Virus record (IMG/VR): IMGVR_UViG_3300036546_000172
Span: 64,001-128,000 of that record
DNA from: a virus
Taxonomy: Duplodnaviria > Caudoviricetes
Reading direction: 5' to 3' (one strand)
Length of the DNA: 64,000 nucleotides
In this document: piece after piece, positions 2,403-59,326 of the stretch
Numbering within the stretch: the first letter of the stretch is position 1
Layout: the number at the start of each line of letters is the position of its first letter
Made by a program: the position numbers and the translations under genes
The notes under the pieces: generated by a model
Told to the model about the DNA's origin: nothing
Databases searched by the model: none
The model's input: only the letters and a program-made list of their open reading frames with translations

Positions 2403-3534
2403 TATCACCATTACCAAAATAAGCGATGTTTGGATGAAGGTTGTGTGCTCCGAACGCTGGATGGAGCTCGATCTGAACGATCGCTTCAAATTCGAGGTGC
2501 CAGGCGCTAAGTTTGATCCACGCGTGAGAGCTGGTAAGTGGGATGGATTTAAGAAGCTCTATAACAGAAAGACTCGTCGGATGTACACCGGTCTTCTGTT
2601 CAAGCTTTTAATGTTTTGTGAAGACAAGAAACTGACATACCACATCGATCCTGACCTGGTACCGCCTGGTGATGAGATTGATGATGAGGATTTAGACCAA
2701 TTGATCTCGTTGATTCAGCCTCACTCTGATGGTCATCCGGTCAATCCATACGATTACCAGCGCGAGGCTGTTAAGTACATGCTCAGTATGGATCGATCTA
2801 CAATTCTGGCAGCTACATCAGCTGGTAAGAGTCTCATACTGTACCTGGCCATTCGCATATATCAGTTGCTTGATGAGATGCAGGACAAGACAATCTTTGT
2901 CATTGTACCATCCACTTCATTGGTTGAGCAGCTATACTCAGATTTCGAAGACTATTCTTCATTCAAGGATTCTAACTGGACGGTCAGCTCCCACGTCCAG
3001 AAGATATCTGGCAAATATTCAAAGTTTGTGAACAAGCAGGTAGTCGTTACAACCTGGCAAAGTCTAGACAAATTACCGCACAGTATCTATGAAGATCTGG
3101 GTGCGGTGTTTGTGGATGAGACTCATACGGCATCTGCTAACATTTTGACTAATATTTTGGAGCGATGTACTACCACTCCTCATCGTCATGGGTTGACGGG
3201 CACTTTAGATGGCTCCGAGTGTTTGCACGGCGATTCAGAAGTAAGAATGCATGATAATTCATTAAAGAAAATAAAAGATATTGTTGTGGGTGATTTAGTA
3301 AAAACCTTAAATGAATCTACTGGGGAAATAGAAAATAAAGAAGTTAAATATATATATAAGAATCTATCAATTTCAAAAAAGGAAAGAAGATTTGAAATTG
3401 AGTTTGAAAATGGAAAGGTTCTTAGATTAACAGGAAATCATAAGGTATTTGTAAGATCATATGGGTGGAAAAGAGCTGATCAGCTTGAAGAAGGTGATGA
3501 TATCATTTGTGTAGAGGAGTATTATGAATTATAA
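2395..3534 (+). CDS. uvsW: UvsW helicase N-terminal part fused to the N-half of a split intein (IntN begins at 3220)
   Basis: SF2 motifs ATSAGKS, DETH and GLTGT, then CLHGDS...LTGNHK intein blocks A/B and a stop. Confidence 0.93.
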   Translation: MADITITKISDVWMKVVCSERWMELDLNDRFKFEVPGAKFDPRVRAGKWDGFKKLYNRKTRRMYTGLLFKLLMFCEDKKLTYHIDPDLVPPGDEIDDEDLDQLISLIQPHSDGHPVNPYDYQREAVKYMLSMDRSTILAATSAGKSLILYLAIRIYQLLDEMQDKTIFVIVPSTSLVEQLYSDFEDYSSFKDSNWTVSSHVQKISGKYSKFVNKQVVVTTWQSLDKLPHSIYEDLGAVFVDETHTASANILTNILERCTTTPHRHGLTGTLDGSECLHGDSEVRMHDNSLKKIKDIVVGDLVKTLNESTGEIENKEVKYIYKNLSISKKERRFEIEFENGKVLRLTGNHKVFVRSYGWKRADQLEEGDDIICVEEYYEL

Positions 3535-4402
3535 AAGGATATACAATGAGTTAATATCAAATGCTCTGGAGAGGAATATTGAAGATGGCGTGTATTATGA
3601 GAAGCACCATATTGTTCCTAGATCGTTGGGAGGAACTGATGATGCGATTAATCTTGTTTGTTTAACCGCTAGGGAACATTTTGTTGCACACTGGCTTTTA
3701 TGGAAATTTAGTGAAGGAAGAGACAAATATAAGATGGGGCATGCTTTCTTTAGAATGTGTTACCATAATTCAGATAATAGAAAGATAAAGTTAAAACCAA
3801 GAGATTATCAATATGCGCGAGAAGCACATAGAGAGTCTGCAAGATATTTTCACACCGGTAAAAAGTTATCTGAAGAACAAAGAAAAAGAAGAAAGACCCA
3901 CAACCCAAATGCAAGAAAATGTATAATAGAAGGGAAAGAGTTTAACGCCATTTCATTAGCTGCAGAGTATTATGGTGTCACTTCAGCTAAAGTAAGAAGA
4001 TATCTTGATGGAGATGGAACTTTAGAGTGGTTAAAAGGAGAAACAAGGTATGCGAACAAGGAAATAGAGAACAAGGTATACATCAACAATACAAATAATG
4101 GAAGAAATCACAAGATAACAGAAGATGGAAGAAAACGTGTTATAGAGTCAAATAAGAATAGAAAATGCAGTGAAGAAACTAGAAGAAAGATAGGCGAAAA
4201 AACAGCAAAGAATACATATATTGTACATCCAGACACAAAAGATATTATTATAGTGAGGGGTAGGAAATCTTGGTGTGAAGATAACGGATATAGCAAAAGT
4301 ATGCTACATAATATTGTAAATTCAGAGAACCCTATCCACAAAGGAGAATATATAGGGTATTATGTATATTCTGAGGAAGAATATGAAAATAAAAAAGATT
4401 AA
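3524..4402 (+). mobile_element. free-standing HNH homing endonuclease between the split-intein halves
   Basis: EKHHIVPRSLGGTDDAINLVCLTAREHFVAH; NUMOD-like GKKLSEEQR tail; AT-rich; overlaps both flanking ORFs. Confidence 0.9.
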
Positions 4403-7400: not shown

Positions 7401-8285
7401 ATGAGTAATATCAAATCGCTGTACAAATCAAAACACATTAAGAACATTGAGCCTTGGATCGTTGAGAATATCCAATACGAGACTATCATGGGATCTCAAG
7501 CCTACGGAGTCTCCTCTGATAACAGCGATCTGGATCTGTACTCATTCACTGTACCTCCTCGTGGAATAGTGTTTCCTCACACTCAAGGGTTCATATCGGG
7601 GTTTGGCAAGCAACCTCCAAATTTCAAAGTGTATCAACAGCACCACATTGAGACAGATGGCGTGTCTCACGATATCAACGTGTACAACATCGTCAGCTAT
7701 TTCCAGTTATTGATGGACAATAATCCCAATCTGATTGACAGTCTCTTTACACGCACACAGTCTGTGACTCATTCAACCAAGATTGGCAACATGGTGAAGG
7801 ATCAACGTCGTATTTTCCTGCATAAGGGAGCATGGCACAGGTTTAAAGGCTATGCTTACGCTCAGATGAAGAAGCTCAGGAGCAAACACGTTGAACCTGA
7901 GAGTAAGCGCTTTGAATCCATCATGAAATATGGCTACGATGTCAAGCACGCGTATCACGTAGTTCGTCTCCTGAATGAGGTTGAGCAGATCTTGATGTAC
8001 GGTGATATTGATCTCATGCAGAACAACGACCAGTTAAAAGATGTGCGTAATGGTGAATGGTCACTGGAGTTCTTGGAACAATATTTCGAGACCAAGGAGG
8101 TTGCGCTTGAGAAGTGTTATCACCAATCGGAGTTGCAGAAATATCCAGACGAGACTAGAATTAAGCAATTATTACTAGATTGTCTGGAAGAATTCTATGG
8201 CCAGGTTAGCGAAGAGGAGGTGCGTTTAGTGTCTGAGCACGAACGCGCCATTGAAGAGATTAAACAGATCATGAGGAAGCTATAA
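7401..8285 (+). CDS. nucleotidyltransferase (Pol-beta superfamily, T4 NrdC.11/RlaP-like)
   Basis: GSQAYGVSSDNSDLD, NNPNLID and GYDVKHAYHVVRLL. Confidence 0.85.
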   Translation: MSNIKSLYKSKHIKNIEPWIVENIQYETIMGSQAYGVSSDNSDLDLYSFTVPPRGIVFPHTQGFISGFGKQPPNFKVYQQHHIETDGVSHDINVYNIVSYFQLLMDNNPNLIDSLFTRTQSVTHSTKIGNMVKDQRRIFLHKGAWHRFKGYAYAQMKKLRSKHVEPESKRFESIMKYGYDVKHAYHVVRLLNEVEQILMYGDIDLMQNNDQLKDVRNGEWSLEFLEQYFETKEVALEKCYHQSELQKYPDETRIKQLLLDCLEEFYGQVSEEEVRLVSEHERAIEEIKQIMRKL

Positions 8286-15794: not shown

Positions 15795-17051
15795 ATGGAT
15801 TCTTATAGACAAGCTCTTCAGTACTGCCGAGATGGTTTGTTAAAAATGACAGACGATGGCGAGGGTCATCGTCTGTTCTGCTACACCAAGTCTTGCTTTT
15901 TTGGTAAAGATACATGGGACGATGTCACTAAGACTCATCGCGGCAAGCTGTACTATGAGAACAAGCCCGTTAATCACCCATTCACTAAGATCTTTAACGT
16001 AGATGAAGTTACAGAGACTGAGCATAACCTCATCTACAATCGCATGCAGAATGAACCATACGAGATCCTAGATAAGGCTAATGGACATTTGTTCATAGTA
16101 TCGATGTTCCAGGACTCCAAAGGTGAGCAGCACGTGGTATTCTCTACCAAGGGCTCAATGCCGAACCCCGAGAACGATCTACTGAATGATGACATTCGTA
16201 TATTCGCTCACAAATACTCAGAACAACTGGATAAGCTGTGTTTTGTGATGCCTAATGTTACATTGATGTTTGAGGCTATCGTCGCTCATGATAAGCACTC
16301 AATGTATGATCTGCAGGTCGAGCAGTATGGATCTGAAAACGACTTTGTTCTGCTCGGTGCTGCAATCAACCTAGGACGCGAGCACATCGACCTCGGTAAC
16401 GAAGATGAGTTAAAGAACATCCAGCATTCAGAGCACAATACAACTACACTGGCTGACTATCCGTGGGTAGAAAGTGATTGGCACCAATTGTTGAAGCTAT
16501 CACATTTCATCGGTTGTCCTGTTGTCCATTGCTACGATTTCATTGAAGGCTCACCTGAGACCTGGAAAGAGCATACTGATCGTGAAGGTTATGTGATTCG
16601 TTTCCTGACAGATAACGCAAGAGTTAAGATCAAGACTACTGAATATTGGAAGAATCGATTCAAAAAAGATCTGACACCTGAGGTATTATTATCTACGTTC
16701 GCTAAAGGCGGAGCTGCATTGATGCAGGAGAAGATCGCTAACAAATGCATTGCTAAAATCGAAAGTTATTTCATCTCATGGTACATGGATGATCTGATTC
16801 GATGGAAATCTGAAGTGCTGCCATACCTGAAACAGAAGAACAATCAATTGTCATCTAAAGATCGCAAATGGCTGTTCACTGAATCCTACTTCTGCAGTTT
16901 CCAGCGTCAATACATTGCAGCGATAGTAGATGGTAAGAATCTGGATATCACACAGAACAAAACTCTGCGTCAGATGTTCGTAGATGATGTAGCTCTTGAG
17001 CGTGCAGATATCAAACAATCGCTTGAACAGATTGTAGTGAATGCTCTATAA
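15795..17051 (+). CDS. RNA ligase, Rnl1-like
   Basis: PFTKIFNVDE, DKANG (motif I), STKGS, MFE and EGYV...VKIK. Confidence 0.8.
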   Translation: MDSYRQALQYCRDGLLKMTDDGEGHRLFCYTKSCFFGKDTWDDVTKTHRGKLYYENKPVNHPFTKIFNVDEVTETEHNLIYNRMQNEPYEILDKANGHLFIVSMFQDSKGEQHVVFSTKGSMPNPENDLLNDDIRIFAHKYSEQLDKLCFVMPNVTLMFEAIVAHDKHSMYDLQVEQYGSENDFVLLGAAINLGREHIDLGNEDELKNIQHSEHNTTTLADYPWVESDWHQLLKLSHFIGCPVVHCYDFIEGSPETWKEHTDREGYVIRFLTDNARVKIKTTEYWKNRFKKDLTPEVLLSTFAKGGAALMQEKIANKCIAKIESYFISWYMDDLIRWKSEVLPYLKQKNNQLSSKDRKWLFTESYFCSFQRQYIAAIVDGKNLDITQNKTLRQMFVDDVALERADIKQSLEQIVVNAL

Positions 17052-17054
17052 TGA

Positions 17055-17579
17055 ATGAAACGTGAGGACATAACTATGATATTTTTAATGAGAGCTACCA
17101 CTTGTTCAGGCAAGAGCACATTCATTGCTCAAAACTTTCCTAATTCAAATGCAGTATTCTCATCAGATGATTTCCGTGAGATGCTGACCGGTGATAGGAC
17201 AAATCAGCAGTTCAATAAGCGAGTGTTTGAGATCATGCATTCGATTATTGACTTCCGTCTGCACAATCGAGCTGAATACACAGTGTATGATGCTACTAAT
17301 CTGCGCATTCGTGATGCTTCAATGATGATCGAATTGTCCAAGAAACATCAGATTCCATTGACGGTGATTTCAATCGAACCTCCTACACTGGATGAACTGA
17401 TCAGACGCAACCGCATTCGTAATAACGAGACTGGATTCAACGTACCTCAGAATGTGATAGAGAAGCATCTTCATCGATACTATGAGTGTATGGATCCTTT
17501 CTTGGAGGAGAGTAAAAATAATCTTCTGTTCAAGTTTATTGAGATAAACCAAGATCATGAGGTGATTCGTGAAGTATAG
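17055..17579 (+). CDS. polynucleotide kinase (AAA_33 family)
   Basis: CSGKST, SSDDFR and YDATNL. Confidence 0.85.
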   Translation: MKREDITMIFLMRATTCSGKSTFIAQNFPNSNAVFSSDDFREMLTGDRTNQQFNKRVFEIMHSIIDFRLHNRAEYTVYDATNLRIRDASMMIELSKKHQIPLTVISIEPPTLDELIRRNRIRNNETGFNVPQNVIEKHLHRYYECMDPFLEESKNNLLFKFIEINQDHEVIREV

Positions 17580-18330
17580 TCCAATACATTCACAATCTGT
17601 GACTATGGGTCATCACATACGCACGTTTGGTCAAGATGTGTGGATTATTGGTGACGTACATGGATGCTATCGTGAGTTTAGAGATCTGTGTCATCAGATC
17701 AGACGTCTAAATTCACAAGCTATCATTATACAACTGGGTGATCTCATCGATCGAGGACCTGGGATGTCTCAAGTGTTTGATGTGATTGAAGATTATAATG
17801 TGATATGCACCATTGGAAACCATGAGTTGAACTTTCTGATGGAGCATGATGGAGTCAAGCGATGCAACAGCAAAGCACGACACATCAATCATGATCGCAT
17901 GGCTTCATACTCCATCGGTGAACAAGATCGTATCTTAACTCACCTGCGAAGCATGTATAATGTCATAGTGGTAGATATTGAGCTCAAAACAGGTGAAATC
18001 GAGCGCTGGTGTCTATCACACGCTCCGGTCAAAGGGTATGAGCAGGCCTGGCCTTTCCATGGTCTGCAATCACGCAATGCCTGGACCTATTGCTCACGCA
18101 CAGAGCCTTATGATGAGACTTACCTACACAGTGATGACAGAGCCGCTCACGGACATCAGCATTGGAACTATATTCCAATTGAGGATCAGATTGCTCAGAT
18201 ATTAGCTGGTGAGAGAAAAACATTGAACGTGGATGGAGGCTGTGTGTACGGCGGTGAACTAGCGGCTGTTAATCTCAACAGTCTATTTGCATTAAAAATC
18301 GGTGCATATGAGAGTTACTGGAAACAGTGA
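17569..18330 (+). CDS. metallophosphoesterase (Pnkp-type phosphatase)
   Basis: GDVHG, GDLIDRG, GNHE, HGH and DGGCVYGG. Confidence 0.88.
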   Translation: MKYSPIHSQSVTMGHHIRTFGQDVWIIGDVHGCYREFRDLCHQIRRLNSQAIIIQLGDLIDRGPGMSQVFDVIEDYNVICTIGNHELNFLMEHDGVKRCNSKARHINHDRMASYSIGEQDRILTHLRSMYNVIVVDIELKTGEIERWCLSHAPVKGYEQAWPFHGLQSRNAWTYCSRTEPYDETYLHSDDRAAHGHQHWNYIPIEDQIAQILAGERKTLNVDGGCVYGGELAAVNLNSLFALKIGAYESYWKQ

Positions 18331-24863: not shown

Positions 24864-25203
24864 AGTTAGTAAGGTGAAGCAGCATCTGAAGCGTACAATG
24901 AAGCGTCCGATGAAACCAAGATTGGATGATTGTCCGGTGTGTGGTGCAAAGGATCAAGCAACTGACATCATCGCACACGGTCCAGGAATTGGAGTGCTAG
25001 GATATGAATGTGGTTGCTCAGTAGCCTCTGAAGAAGGAAAACTTACAGAGTATCGTAAATACGATGGAACAATAACTAAAAAGGAATAGACATGATCGAC
25101 TCAGTGTTACATCACGTACTGGTAGGTATCGCTTCAATAGGTCTGTGGATGATGCGTATCTTCTTTGATGTACTGAGTCGATTGTTTCCGTCCTTTTTCT
25201 GAG

Positions 25204-25524
25204 GTGACTATGAAACTGTTATTATGCACCAAATGTCAATCTATTTTCAGCTTAGTACAATCTAAAGTTCGTTCGTGTGAATGTGGTAACGTCAAAGGTA
25301 TCTACATCGATGACCTTAACGCCAGATTCACGTCCGATACTGAGGACTACTTCATGCTTGGCTTCGCCAACTACACGGTGAGCAAAGCTATTTCTGATTA
25401 TAGCAGGTATGGCAGTCCAGACGGAATGGGTCTAAACTTTACCGCCTTTGTCATACCAGAACCGTGTGATACCTTCATTCGTGTTGGTGCAGATGAGTTT
25501 AGTGAAATCGAGGCAAATTTGTAG
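25204..25524 (+). CDS. zinc-binding hypothetical protein
   Basis: CTKC...CECG. Confidence 0.6.
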   Translation: MTMKLLLCTKCQSIFSLVQSKVRSCECGNVKGIYIDDLNARFTSDTEDYFMLGFANYTVSKAISDYSRYGSPDGMGLNFTAFVIPEPCDTFIRVGADEFSEIEANL

Positions 25525-25980
25525 TAGATTTTATGCTCAGTGTAGTGTAATATGTGGTTGTCCATTGAGAAAGGAGCTGTATAATGAATGATTATATGCG
25601 CGGTAAAATTGAAGCTTGTATTGAACTGTCTGACGGTGATGCTGAGAAGTTTAAGCAAGACGTGATTAAGGTTACTGGACTCACAGATCAAGGTTTTCAC
25701 AATCTGAACATGACGGACGTAGCATTCGATATGCTGAACCGTGGAGAGGATCTCAACGAGATCATGGATGCTGTCCTATGAAGAAGATTATCAGATTCGG
25801 TCTCGCTTGGACAGTAGGTGTTCCATTTATACTGATCGCTTTGGGTCTTCTGGGATTGATGGCCGCAGTGTTCTCGTTGGTAGAGGATGATGATGAAGTC
25901 ACCGATTGTGGTAATTACATCAAAGAGATCGTTGCAGCCTGGTGGAAGTGGGCAAGTTTCTCGTCTCTTAAATAGGGTGT

Positions 25981-26049
25981 GGTGGGTGCTCTTAGGACGC
26001 TGACAGGGTATGGCATAAGCCGTCTGAATCGCAGCACCCACTCTTTTTT
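25981..26049 (+). ncRNA. candidate small structured RNA
   Basis: 10-bp closing stem ggtgggtgct/agcacccact, inner atggc/gccgt hairpin, preceded by TAAATA and followed by a T-run. Confidence 0.4.
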
Positions 26050-26078
26050 GCTCGGGTAGCCCAATAGGCAGAGAAATC

Positions 26079-26162
26079 GGGGGAGTGGTGAAATGGCAGA
26101 CACAGCGGTGTTAAGTACCGTCGCCTTAGCGCGTGTGGGTTCGAATCCCACCTCCCCCACCA
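26079..26162 (+). tRNA. tRNA-Leu(TAA)
   Basis: GGGGGAG/CTCCCCC acceptor, long variable arm, CCA; atypical loop GTTAAGT. Confidence 0.9.
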
Positions 26163-26198
26163 AACAACTCCCGATAGCTCAGCTGGATAGAGCAACAG

Positions 26199-26322
26199 AG
26201 ACAACAAAGCCTCGCGCTAGCTCAATTGGATAGAGCACCTCCCTTCTTTTGTGCATTCGTGTAGTGTACAAAAGAAGGAGGTGGTTACTGGTTCGACTCC
26301 AGTGCGCGAGGCTTTGTTGTCT
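26199..26322 (+). ncRNA. tRNA-Arg(TCT)-like RNA with a 27-nt anticodon insertion, an extended acceptor stem and no CCA
   Basis: Intact D and T arms; cttct-[27 nt]-aa; agacaacaaagcctcgcgc/gcgcgaggctttgttgtct stem. Confidence 0.7.
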
Positions 26323-26377
26323 TTAAAAATACAAAATATGATTCCCACTCGGGAATCCAATATAAGATAGGTGACAT

Positions 26378-26656
26378 ATGAATTCACATTTGAGTTTACT
26401 CGGATGCCGAGCAAGAGATAAAGTAACAGGTATCGAAGGTGTGGTAACTACTGTATCATTTGATTTGTACGGTTGCATTCAAGCAGTACTGACTCAGAAG
26501 GCAGATGAGAAAGGTGAGTATAAGATGTCACCGTGGTTTGATGTTACACGCCTTGACATCGTTGACCATAACCCGGTTATGACACAGCCGAACTTTGAAC
26601 TGGGATATGTTGCAGAAGGTAAGAAGGGAGCTGCAGAAAAACCTCAGCCTATGTGA
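26378..26656 (+). CDS. conserved phage hypothetical protein
   Basis: ARDKVTGIEGVV...DLYGC...WFDVTRL. Confidence 0.7.
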   Translation: MNSHLSLLGCRARDKVTGIEGVVTTVSFDLYGCIQAVLTQKADEKGEYKMSPWFDVTRLDIVDHNPVMTQPNFELGYVAEGKKGAAEKPQPM

Positions 26657-26703
26657 TGTTAAATCGACAGTTAGATAAATAGAAAGGTATAAACAAGGAA
26701 CCA

Positions 26704-26811
26704 ATGATGAACACTCAAAACACCATCGATGCGTCCAATATGCATCCCGGATATAGTAATTCGATGGCTCTCTGTGGCTATAAGCCAGGATACAGAGAAC
26801 GAGGGTTTTGA
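26704..26811 (+). CDS. 35-aa leader peptide (MMNTQNTIDASNMHPGYSNSMALCGYKPGYRERGF)
   Basis: AAGGAA RBS; the stop codon lies inside the antiterminator 5' arm. Confidence 0.7.
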   Translation: MMNTQNTIDASNMHPGYSNSMALCGYKPGYRERGF

Positions 26812-26864
26812 GCTGATATTGCAGTCATAGTTCATCAAACCCTCCAGTTGGAGGGTTTCTTTTT
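26801..26864 (+). promoter_or_regulatory. mutually exclusive antiterminator/terminator (transcription attenuator)
   Basis: gagggttt-tgagct-gat pairs with gtc-agttca-aaaccctc; the alternative is aaaccctcc/ggagggttt followed by cttttt. Confidence 0.75.
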
Positions 26865-26892
26865 ATACTCGGATAAGGTACAATGAGTTTTC

Positions 26893-26978
26893 GGGTAAGC
26901 GGTGAAGTTGGAGAGTCACACCAGATTGTAACCCTGGCGCCATGTGCTGAGTAGGTCCGAATCCTACCTTACCCACCA
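26893..26978 (+). tRNA. tRNA-Tyr(GTA), slightly atypical
   Basis: GGGTAAG/CTTACCC acceptor, long variable arm, CCA; T-loop TCCGAAT and an A-C mismatch in the anticodon stem. Confidence 0.8.
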
Positions 26979-27051
26979 ATAACAGTTGCACAACATCACA
27001 GGACATCATATAATATTTGTAAGTTAAGATGACCTAGAGAAGGAATCAGAG

Positions 27052-27537
27052 ATGAACGCAACTACCTATATCATGAGCAAGCTGGATGAAGTTTTCGCGC
27101 CAATGGATGCAAAAGTACTGGAAGCTTCAAAGAAGTGGGGCGTTGAGCGTTTTGAGGCGATCAAAGAGCTGAGAGCTTCAGGAGAACTGAACGGTTTGAA
27201 CTCAGCTGAGAAATATGATCGTCTCTACGCGGTAGCTGGTGGTAAGACTTGGTACAATATCTTCAACGGTCGTAATGCTAAAATGATCGAAGAGATCATG
27301 GAAAAGAATTGCAAGATGACCGCTGAGAAGCGGAATGCTAAGATTGCAAGTAAGTTGGAGAAGGCTGGCGTTACAGAGGTGCTCAGCTCTGACTTCAGCG
27401 ACACACACGATGGATTCAACGGCTACTTCGGCGTCGAAACCAACAAAGGTAAGAAGACAGTAGAAGTAGAAACAATTTATGCAGGTGGATACAACATTCA
27501 ATGCCTGCATCTGAGAGTACTGGTGAGGGTCAAATGA
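27052..27537 (+). CDS. conserved phage hypothetical protein inserted in the tRNA array
   Basis: TIYAGGYNIQCLHLRVLV C-terminus; own promoter (ttgcac...tataat) and terminator. Confidence 0.75.
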   Translation: MNATTYIMSKLDEVFAPMDAKVLEASKKWGVERFEAIKELRASGELNGLNSAEKYDRLYAVAGGKTWYNIFNGRNAKMIEEIMEKNCKMTAEKRNAKIASKLEKAGVTEVLSSDFSDTHDGFNGYFGVETNKGKKTVEVETIYAGGYNIQCLHLRVLVRVK

Positions 27538-27718: not shown

Positions 27719-27724
27719 GACAAC

Positions 27725-27813
27725 AGAGAGTGATTCCAGCTGGTGCTGGAGACCGCCTGCTAAGCGGTTCGCCTGATTCATCGGGTGTGGTTCAATTCCA
27801 CCGCTCTCTGCCA
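27725..27813 (+). tRNA. tRNA-Ser(GCT)
   Basis: CTGCTAA loop, long variable arm, GCCA end. Confidence 0.88.
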
Positions 27814-28294: not shown

Positions 28295-28679
28295 ACAAAC
28301 ATCATTGAGGTAGTCTCTAGGTGAGTTAACGGCCATTGACTCATTGAGGATTGGCGGAATAAAGTCGGAGGTCTTGGGCTTAACGCACGTTCAAAGAGGT
28401 GGTTCTCGGTCATCTATCAAATGGTAGATGACGCAGTCTGAAAAGGCTTGAACGGTTCCTTGCATACACTACAGGCTACAGACCCTACTCTGTTAAGCAT
28501 GTCAACAGTTCTCTCACCCTCATGCATGACTTGAAGATATTCTTCATAGTCGATGTCTGGCAACAGATGAGACAACAGATGACCAATCTAAGTCAGTCAG
28601 AGTCAACAAAGAGAGATGCAGGGGTGTTGGTAATAAGCTAGTCCAGCATTCTCACAGAGACTACCTCAATGATGTTTGT
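28295..28679 (+). ncRNA. unknown large structured RNA closed by a perfect 24-bp stem
   Basis: acaaacatcattgaggtagtctct / agagactacctcaatgatgtttgt, many nested helices, no credible ORF; strand inferred from the tRNA operon. Confidence 0.7.
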
Positions 28680-58170: not shown

Positions 58171-58228
58171 TGGAGTGGTTGAGTCTCTATTGTCGCTGTA
58201 ATCCTGTGTTGAGTGTTGAGGTAATAAA

Positions 58229-59326
58229 ATGCGTAAACTAGTAACTATCCGAGAAGTTAAAGAAGTTCGACCAATTGAAAAGGCTGATGCTATTGAGTGC
58301 ATTAGTGTTGATGGATGGACCGTTGTTTCAAAGAAGGGTGAATTTCAACCTGGAGACAAATGTGTCTTCTTTGAAATTGACTCCTTTCTCCCTGCCGATG
58401 ACGAAAGATATGCTTTTCTCATTAAGGGTGGTGTGAAGAAAGATCCATCCGGAAAAGAAAGGATTCGACTGAAAACAGTTAAACTACGAGGTCAGTTGTC
58501 TCAAGGTTTGGCACTACCAATTAAGCTATTCCCCGAGTTGAAATATTTTCTTCAAGGTGAAGATGTTTCTAGTGCTCTTAATGTAATCAAATATGAAAGG
58601 CCAGAACCAAAAACGGCAAATGCCGCTGGTCATTTCCCTGACTTTATTAAGAAAACCGATGAAGAACGTATTCAAAATGTCTATGATGACTTCAAAGAGT
58701 TGTATAAGAATACAGACTACTACGCAACAATGAAATTGGATGGGTCTTCATGTACTGTGGCATTTTTGAACCAAAATATGTCATGGCACTGGAGAAATGA
58801 ACCCGAATATGAAGTCATCAAAGATTCTAATAAGATCGGGGAATTCAAAGTTTGCTCACGGAATCTTGAATTGAAACCCGACCCAGAGTCTCACTTCTAC
58901 AAAGCAGTATTGTCTGGTGGTATTGTAGACAAGGCTCGTCTGATTTCAAAAGAACTTGGGTGTTCGGTTGCTATCCAAGGTGAAGTGATGGGGCCAGGTA
59001 TTCAAGGTAACAAAGATAAGTTTAATGACTATCAGTTTTTTGCATTCAATATCTTCAACATTGACAAGCAAGAATACTTACCGTATGCATTTGTTTTGGA
59101 ACTTTTCAATTACTTTGGGGTTCAACAAGTACCACTGATCACACAAAATAAAATTAAACCATTTACTTTGTTTGGTACTCTTGGTAGTATGTTGGACTAT
59201 GCGGATGGTTACAGTATCAATTCAGATTGCCGAGAGGGTATTGTAATGAAGCCTGCATGTGGAGCATCTGGAGAAAGTTTCAAAATTGTTTCAAACAGAT
59301 TTTTGATGAAAGGTGGTGATGAATGA
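58229..59326 (+). CDS. RNA ligase (DRB0094/Rnl2-like family)
   Basis: FEIDSFLP, KTDEERIQN, KLDGSS, QGEVMGPGIQ, EGIV and FKIVSN. Confidence 0.9.
   Translation: MRKLVTIREVKEVRPIEKADAIECISVDGWTVVSKKGEFQPGDKCVFFEIDSFLPADDERYAFLIKGGVKKDPSGKERIRLKTVKLRGQLSQGLALPIKLFPELKYFLQGEDVSSALNVIKYERPEPKTANAAGHFPDFIKKTDEERIQNVYDDFKELYKNTDYYATMKLDGSSCTVAFLNQNMSWHWRNEPEYEVIKDSNKIGEFKVCSRNLELKPDPESHFYKAVLSGGIVDKARLISKELGCSVAIQGEVMGPGIQGNKDKFNDYQFFAFNIFNIDKQEYLPYAFVLELFNYFGVQQVPLITQNKIKPFTLFGTLGSMLDYADGYSINSDCREGIVMKPACGASGESFKIVSNRFLMKGGDE

Follow-up and report, generated by a model that had tools for sequence, protein, structure and literature searches.

The window analysed here, a stretch of 64,000 nucleotides of viral DNA, contains at positions 26211-26311 a tRNA-Arg(UCU) gene in which the anticodon is base-paired with an insert. 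This raises the question of whether such a gene can give rise to a decoding tRNA. An earlier note on this DNA had offered two alternatives, namely a non-decoding elbow mimic or decoy for tRNA-targeting defences, and a caged pre-tRNA that is activated by cleavage and religation. Judged from sequence comparisons, the caged pre-tRNA fits the evidence best and is partly supported by a covarying family of inserts, members with normal CCA ends, an insert-less allele, the position of the gene as sole tRNA-Arg and the presence of Rnl1 and Rnl2 ligases. The decoy or elbow mimic is disfavoured.

The body of the tRNA is normal. The Rfam tRNA model (RF00005) matched positions 26211-26311 with 51.2 bits (E 6e-10), above its gathering score of 29 bits, and the match accommodates about 30 extra nt in the anticodon loop. 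ARAGORN missed this gene in its bacterial mode; in its intron mode it called a tRNA-Arg(tct) with a 27-nt intron. When the gene was aligned to its canonical tRNA-Arg(TCT) counterparts in Klebsiella phage LPKP23 and Morganella phage MP1, 27 nt stood out as a clean insert flanked by CTTCT and AA, at positions 26248-26274 of the plus strand, which corresponds to U36/A37 in tRNA numbering. According to Rfam, the alignment and ARAGORN in intron mode, the 5' exon (26211..26247, plus strand) covers tRNA positions 1-36 and ends in the anticodon TCT. The 3' exon (26275..26311, plus strand), as delimited by Rfam and the alignment, extends from A37 to the discriminator G73. U33, the anticodon UCU, A37 and the ArgRS identity elements A20, C35 and G/A73 are all present. 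A 7-nt anticodon loop is obtained only when the insert is removed in silico, and ARAGORN then calls the insert-free sequence tRNA-Arg(tct).

The region 26199-26322 folds with -72 kcal/mol (z = -11.2), and none of 200 shuffled sequences folded as well. In this fold, the anticodon arm consists of 5 bp, a bulged C32 and a further 14 bp, all in one hairpin. The order of pairs in the extended helix, as read from the sequence and the fold, is 33:38, 34:37, 35:i27, 36:i26 and i1:i25 onward, where the last two insert bases, AG, pair with C35 and U36. We define a 36/37 hairpin mini-intron as an insert that directly follows position 36, has its last two bases paired with positions 35-36, forms a helix continuous with the pairs 33:38 and 34:37, and has an inner stem of 8-15 bp. 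The window copy belongs to this class by its 27-nt insert ending in AG and its inner stem of 10 bp, which is closed by a 5-nt loop; this assignment is based on the fold, the alignment, ARAGORN and the covariation described below. All elements of a normal tRNA body with an anticodon-pairing insert that had been listed in the earlier note were recovered at 26211-26311, and so was the lengthened acceptor stem. The acceptor helix comprises 19 Watson-Crick pairs, as the note had stated, or 21 pairs in a longer fold (26197-26217 with 26304-26324). Its extension is formed by a leader strand (26197..26210, plus strand), which pairs with 26311-26324 in the minimum free energy fold and shows compensated changes in a related locus (L071), and by a trailer strand (26312..26324, plus strand), which the fold likewise supports and which begins with C74. 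No CCA follows: the discriminator G73 is succeeded by C74 and TTT, whereas CCA is encoded by all 11 other tRNAs of the window, in agreement with the contrast drawn in the note.

The window is part of a complete virus record of 137,942 bp with terminal repeats, which stems from a shale-gas metagenome assembly. The phage is T4-like, as indicated by a gp23 capsid gene and, within the window, by gp46/47, gp45, gp44/62, RegA and a Dda-like helicase. In its intron mode, ARAGORN found no tRNA-Arg in the complete phage genome other than the interrupted gene, and AGA makes up 24% of the phage's Arg codons. Its upstream neighbour is a tRNA-Leu(UAA) (26079..26162, plus strand; called by ARAGORN, Rfam 50.9 bits), and the order tRNA-Leu, tRNA-Arg is common to the Klebsiella and Morganella phages. 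No promoter or terminator was found between the two genes; sites resembling a promoter and a terminator lie at 25558-25585 and 26837-26858, respectively. The tRNA-Leu(UAA) and the tRNA-Arg element are probably part of one transcript. A weak match to the Y RNA-like YrlA (E 0.085) was dismissed, as it merely covers the T arm of the tRNA-Leu and the D arm that follows.

A feature absent from the earlier note is that the element lies within another tRNA-Arg gene, now disrupted, whose ends stand on either side of it. The orphan 5' part of this displaced canonical tRNA-Arg(UCU) gene (26168..26196, plus strand) comprises the 5' strand of the acceptor stem, the D arm and the start of the anticodon stem. 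It is the stretch that blastn matched in the tRNA-Arg genes of the Klebsiella and Morganella phages, and it compares well with intact relatives (L193-L199). The orphan 3' part (26340..26359, plus strand) comprises the end of the T loop, the 3' strands of the T stem and the acceptor stem, the discriminator and CCA. It was recognized by its complementarity and layout: its acceptor strand is complementary to 26169-26174, and the arrangement is that of the intact relatives, with a chance expectation that we estimate at about 2e-4. The orphan ends around the element imply that a stem-flanked unit has replaced the middle of a resident gene. The same layout was observed in L100, where a tRNA-Leu and an orphan 5' half precede an extended intron-bearing tRNA-Arg. 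In L071 the unit stands in a different context that is not a disrupted tRNA-Arg gene. Together, these arrangements suggest that the stem-flanked unit invades or replaces resident tRNA-Arg genes. A megablast search with 25000-27500 gave no match among GenBank phages, and an exact pattern for the window's own arm gave none in viral contigs. The relatives L005-L009, which were found through a neighbouring ORF of 92 amino acids, are without the element.

Some other unusual genes were seen in this setting. At 27724-27813 the window carries a class-II tRNA with an encoded CCA and, by eye, the anticodon GCT (Ser); it was missed by ARAGORN, and its best Rfam model is tRNA-Sec with 59.8 bits. Positions 28321-28491, within the tRNA cluster, gave a sub-threshold match to the manA RNA motif (33 bits, E 1.6e-5, the gathering score being 55). 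Among large relatives, the one closest to the phage, a 149-kb contig (L005), has an odd 96-nt tRNA-like gene and a tRNA-Tyr-like gene (3653-3748 and approximately 2758-2853), of which the former is called by ARAGORN only with a 25-nt intron and the latter is missed.

We examined whether the design recurs by searching viral contigs, metagenomes and species genomes with a pattern describing a tRNA-Arg(TCT) that has additional bases behind its anticodon. Matches were obtained in viral contigs, in 75 metagenome stretches and in 43 species-genome stretches, those in cellular genomes being mostly chance matches in coding DNA. Filtering for a paired anticodon stem and a 7/7 acceptor stem left 25 distinct inserts in tRNA-Arg(UCU). 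The patterns fix parts of the tRNA, and the breadth of the family is therefore what such patterns can catch; since the second pattern fixed CTTCT and AGAA, these positions carry no evidential weight. In all 25 members the insert starts after U36 and ends in AG opposite C35-U36, a regularity that is in part fixed by the pattern. The lengths range from 24 to 42 nt, with 22 of the 25 inserts measuring 24-31 nt, and the inner stem has a mean length of 10.1 bp (range 8-15). When the insert was removed in silico, ARAGORN called all of 27 members tRNA-Arg(tct).

The pairs that the patterns leave free covary. In the first four free pairs, 92 of 100 positions were paired, compared with 56±3.8 when the partners were shuffled, and none of 2000 shuffles reached 92. 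Four pair types occur at i1:i(n-2), which is formed in 25 of 25 inserts; all 25 likewise have i3 paired, and 24 have i4 paired. Each free position shows three to five standard pair types among the 25 inserts. The closest comparison is provided by a contig from a second shale-gas run (X2, identical to L071), in which both partners have changed relative to the window at 26248/26272, 26254/26266 and 26252/26268. Compensated changes were also found in its acceptor stem, its anticodon stem and its acceptor extension. The check proposed in the earlier note, a search for homologues with compensatory changes, was thus positive for both extensions. Judged by these comparisons, at least 25 distinct hairpin inserts are under clear selection, and the tRNA-Arg element is almost certainly a real gene under selection. 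This upholds the view of the note that selection rather than decay is at work, as members of the same design differ in sequence while their pairing is kept. A quasipalindrome template-switch origin was considered as well and was rejected, because it fails to explain the differing inner sequences or their compensated changes.

The same design was encountered in other isoacceptors: in a tRNA-Leu(UAA) with an insert ending in TT (L060:995-1108), in two copies of tRNA-Gly(UCC) with CCA and inserts ending in GG (L106:6981-7091 and 7565-7675, minus strand), and in a tRNA-Lys(UUU) with an insert ending in AA (L200, approximately 1720-1840). All of these have U34 and A37-A38. As the TT, GG and AA ends show, the two bases that close the intron vary with anticodon positions 35-36, to which they are complementary. 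No carrier record that was searched gave a tRNA-Arg(UCU)-type match other than the gene with the intron.

Among cultured phages, the element is carried by the Aeromonas phages PX29, AsFcp_1, AsFcp_2, Ah1 and avDM12-TAAL. One of the loci from our search (L014, also L206) is PX29 itself, with an element 100% identical to GU396103 101161-101261. The annotation of GU396103 contains there a 'tRNA-Lys' joined from two pieces (PX29t025), the body of which is a tRNA-Arg(UCU); the element is not discussed in the PX29 genome paper. Like the window copy, PX29t025 has an extended acceptor stem, no CCA and a 36/37 insert, which is 26 nt long in PX29. The window copy differs in the sequence of its insert and in its location inside a disrupted tRNA-Arg gene. 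The genes of AsFcp_1 and AsFcp_2 are identical to that of PX29, and Ah1 and avDM12-TAAL have a diverged copy with a 28-nt insert. The records of Ah1, AsFcp_2 and phiAS5 have no feature annotated under the match, and the AsFcp_1 record is without any annotation. The same locus in phiAS5, flanked by gp57B and two tRNA-Leu genes, holds an insert-less form of this tRNA that has the loop CTTCTAA. The presence of an insert-less and an insert-bearing allele at one locus fixes the insert boundaries at CTTCT|AA. The phiAS5 loop is also the one that exact removal of the window insert restores, as the earlier note had foreseen.

phiAS5 also bears on the relation between the two extra helices. An acceptor extension of 11-15 bp without CCA was found in the window, in L071, L100 and L101 and in the Aeromonas phages, and a 9-bp extension without CCA is common to all three Aeromonas phages, phiAS5 included. 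The occurrence of the extension without the insert in phiAS5 means that the acceptor extension is independent of the insert. Conversely, about 20 members have the insert without an acceptor extension, and in ten of these the acceptor stem is of ordinary form and CCA is encoded after it. L101 is extended, whereas L072 and L096, whose tRNAs are nearly identical to its own, end normally with CCA. In all extension-bearing members C74 is paired with G(-2). On these comparisons, the acceptor extension is a separate module that occurs with or without the insert, and the idea of the two extensions as one sealing device is not supported.

A single bacterial carrier was found among one genome each of approximately 185,000 prokaryote species. 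This is a Chitinophagaceae metagenome-assembled genome (G010), in which the gene, with a 27-nt hairpin insert, lies at C16:136283-136384 (L180 and L217), is surrounded by ordinary chromosomal genes and is the only tRNA-Arg(UCU)-type match detectable in the genome. All 40 relatives searched gave matches, and the full-length matches listed are insert-less genes of 75 nt; the six that were examined are all tRNA-Arg(tct). Synteny between G010 and its relatives could not be established from flanks of 1.5 kb. G010 encodes RNase III, RtcB and an Rnl1-family ligase, the last of which had family matches in none of 14 control genomes.

We then asked which enzymes are at hand in the phage. On the plus strand of the window are an Rnl1-family RNA ligase (15795..17051; PF09511, 44 bits), an adjoining polynucleotide-kinase-like P-loop kinase (17055..17579; PF13671, 51 bits), a calcineurin-like metallophosphoesterase that is a candidate 3'-end healing enzyme (17569..18330; PF00149, 43 bits), and an Rnl2-type RNA ligase (58220..59323, or G000 122220-123323; PF09414, 70.6 bits at G000 122718-123287). 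The first three are contiguous at 15795-18330, between gp46 and gp45, and resemble a complete RNA heal-and-seal cassette. Rnl1 and Rnl2 are both present in the two complete phage carriers, the window phage and PX29, the ligase co-occurrence as a whole being based on three complete carriers. No ligase match was obtained in three viral carrier records, a negative of no weight as these are incomplete, nor did tblastn with the phage Rnl1 and Rnl2 give a match within the short metagenome loci. RNase III, EndA and RtcB were not found in the five viral carrier records; for the EndA/Sen family (PF01974), archaeal controls were matched. The ORFs flanking the element have no Pfam match to a homing endonuclease or another nuclease. 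RegB was considered on account of a GGAG in the anticodon stem of the window copy and was dropped, as this motif is not common to the other members.

From these observations, we consider it probable that the insert is removed to yield a decoding tRNA. There is also a reasonable case that the element is the phage's working tRNA-Arg(UCU) gene, encoding a precursor with two extra helices that would be cut and religated. Transcription would produce a precursor with a 27-nt hairpin intron at U36/A37 and a paired leader and trailer that extend the acceptor stem to a length of 21 bp. The cuts, at 26247|26248 and 26274|26275 in the centre of an anticodon helix of about 20 bp, would be made by an endonuclease specific for double strands, most likely host RNase III, and would release the hairpin and leave a U36-3'OH and a 5'P-A37. 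A phage RNA ligase, Rnl1 or Rnl2, would reseal the 7-nt loop CUUCUAA. The acceptor stalk would be cut in the same way or be trimmed by RNase P and exonucleases, and the host CCA-adding enzyme would complete G73-C74 to CCA.

The case for RNase III is one of geometry and end chemistry. RNase III leaves products with 2-nt 3' overhangs and with 5'-P and 3'-OH ends, and such ends are joined by Rnl1 and Rnl2 without healing. The exact splice sites are staggered by 2 bp, so that both products would have 2-nt 3' overhangs, and the distance from the predicted cuts is about 10 bp to the hairpin loop and about 9 bp to the tRNA core. An RNase III substrate offers roughly two helical turns of dsRNA about its scissile bonds; the window element matches this geometry with about 10 bp on each side of the predicted cuts and a 2-bp 3' offset, which the design itself in part dictates. 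Indeed, since a continuous helix around a 36/37 insert makes a 2-nt stagger automatic, the stagger is consistent with RNase III and is no independent proof of it. At the other end of the molecule, 12 bp separate the 5' end of the tRNA from the T loop, and 11-15 bp separate it from the foot of the acceptor stalk. If this position were cut in the manner of RNase III, G73-C74 would be left, which could be completed by the CCA-adding enzyme; in CCA-less T4 tRNAs, CCA is likewise added after trimming. Several points speak against this reading. The bulged C32 of the window copy and the 1x1 or 2x2 mismatches near the predicted cut in several members are sites at which clean double cuts by RNase III may fail. 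Moreover, a nuclease that produces cyclic-phosphate ends would be just as compatible with the kinase and phosphoesterase beside Rnl1, and the RtcB of G010 counts against a combination of RNase III and Rnl. To our knowledge, there is no precedent for splicing by RNase III cleavage and subsequent ligation, and our literature search found no description of 36/37 hairpin introns or of splicing by RNase III plus a ligase. We would therefore put RNase III as the nuclease at somewhat below an even chance. The complete scheme is offered more tentatively still: a protein-only tRNA splicing of bacteria and phages, in which a staggered double cut by RNase III excises the hairpin, an Rnl1- or Rnl2-type ligase rejoins the halves and, in some genes, the same nuclease sets the 5' end and a 3' end at N73-C74.

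An alternative that retains splicing is that another nuclease, of phage or host origin, reads the hairpin, for example through conserved apical U.G and U.A pairs about 10 bp from the cut. It would leave 2',3'-cyclic phosphate and 5'-OH ends that are healed by the kinase and the metallophosphoesterase before Rnl1 seals them, as in T4 tRNA repair and in fungal and plant splicing. This would account for the contiguity of the three genes at 15795-18330, and it draws on the recurrence of U.G and U.A at insert positions 9 and 10 (15 and 14 of 25 members, in ungapped register), which speaks for a reader with specificity for sequence or distance and less for a generic dsRNA nuclease. The mismatches near the cut in many members and the RtcB of the bacterial carrier point in the same direction. 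However, no candidate for such a nuclease was found, EndA being absent and the neighbouring ORFs being without a Pfam match. The carriers are also very diverse, including T4-like phages, jumbo-phage fragments and one bacterium, which favours a universal host enzyme, and defence against anticodon nucleases explains the heal-and-seal cassette well enough. This alternative is, in our judgement, unlikely, yet it deserves to be kept in mind.

Still less likely is that the RNA is never spliced and that a stable tRNA-shaped molecule with buried anticodon and ends serves as a decoy or sponge for defence nucleases or modification enzymes, or has another non-decoding role like T4 rnaC and rnaD. In the window element both ends and the anticodon are indeed base-paired, T4 has two stable RNAs beside its tRNA-Arg, one of which has a T arm and long hairpins, and phage tRNAs have been proposed as a counter to tRNA-targeting defences (PMC10264068). 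Such a role is hard to reconcile with the ten members that have ordinary acceptor ends and an encoded CCA, with flanking residues that always restore a canonical loop and an intron end that tracks the anticodon in four isoacceptors, and with the exchange of insert-less and insert-bearing alleles at one locus. Moreover, the intron-bearing gene is the sole tRNA-Arg(UCU)-type gene found per carrier, including a bacterium that must decode AGA. Finally, the palindromic insert and the stem-flanked unit might be footprints of a selfish or homing process that acts on the DNA of tRNA-Arg genes, the RNA being dead or irrelevant, and the insert might destroy a nuclease target in the anticodon-loop DNA. 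The location of the unit inside a disrupted canonical tRNA-Arg gene in the window and in L100, its different context in the close relative L071 and the precedent of SegB, a homing endonuclease within the T4 tRNA cluster, would fit this idea. We nevertheless regard it as very improbable: no endonuclease gene was found beside the element, compensatory changes keep four RNA helices and the D and T arms are canonical, and a dead gene would leave the phage and G010 without a tRNA-Arg(UCU). It would in any case be compatible with splicing, as introns that protect homing sites are still spliced.

The proposed cut-and-religated precursor can be compared with several known systems. Archaeal and eukaryal tRNA introns are removed by proteins, namely EndA or TSEN and a ligase (reviewed in PMC4090602). 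The element resembles them in being a short insert in the anticodon loop that pairs with the anticodon, is not self-splicing and would need protein-mediated cutting and ligation. It differs in its position at 36/37 instead of 37/38, in the absence of EndA from the phages and in the bacterial nature of the hosts. A bulge-helix-bulge intron, which has two 3-nt bulges separated by a 4-bp helix and usually lies at 37/38, was rejected, as the helix of the window copy is continuous, only C32 is bulged and the insert lies at 36/37. Group I introns of bacterial and phage tRNAs also interrupt a bacterial-type gene in the anticodon loop; a self-splicing intron of this kind was discarded, since the insert has 27 nt compared with a ribozyme core of at least about 200 nt and no Rfam intron family was matched. 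The 'enigmatic' tRNA introns of the Lak megaphages of Prevotella, some of them tRNA-shaped, occur in tRNA-Phe, -Gly, -Thr and -Tyr (Devoto et al. 2019, PMC6784885; preprint 10.1101/356790). They are likewise short conserved inserts in phage tRNA genes for which the means of removal was not given, but their description includes no 36/37 hairpin rule, no covariation and no nuclease geometry (PMC6784885).

The processing helices of RNase III, such as the rRNA stalks, T7 R1.1 and T4 species 1 RNA, are also helices of about 20 bp that are formed by flanking or inserted sequence and are cut in the middle. In these, cleavage only separates or trims RNAs, and the flanks are never rejoined. T4-type tRNA clusters reportedly contain an RNase III substrate. 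T4 rnaC and rnaD, which are tRNA-like neighbours of tRNA-Arg, showed no likeness to the element beyond the T arm when they were folded. In T4 tRNA repair, the cut made by PrrC is healed by Pnkp and sealed by Rnl1 (reviewed in PMC3400036). There, too, a break in the anticodon loop is sealed by a phage Rnl1-type ligase, and the window phage has Rnl1, a kinase and a phosphoesterase together. In T4, however, the break is damage inflicted at 33/34 by a host nuclease, whereas in the window it would be a programmed step of maturation in which RNA is removed.

As far as we know from textbooks, the tRNA genes of bacteria and phages contain self-splicing introns only, and protein-dependent tRNA splicing belongs to archaea and eukaryotes. 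If the inserts are spliced, they would represent a splicing route new to bacteria and their viruses. Phage RNA ligases would then gain a constitutive or housekeeping substrate beyond repair, and a phage could keep rare-codon tRNAs (Arg UCU, Lys UUU, Leu UAA, Gly UCC) masked. Splicing would also mean that tRNA finders in bacterial mode miss or misname real genes, as with the window copy, which was missed, and the PX29 copy, which was named 'tRNA-Lys'. As PX29 and Ah1 with the insert and phiAS5 without it can be cultured in tractable hosts, splicing is directly testable.

Lastly, a second kind of short insert was noted in viral tRNA-Arg, tRNA-Lys and tRNA-Ile genes (L017:6580-6670, L027:2803-2893, L033:2695-2787 and 3247-3344, L015:2266-2363, L019 and L052). 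By reading, these inserts lie at or near the canonical position 37/38, and they show little or no pairing with the anticodon, L015 having a short GAAG:CTTC pairing.
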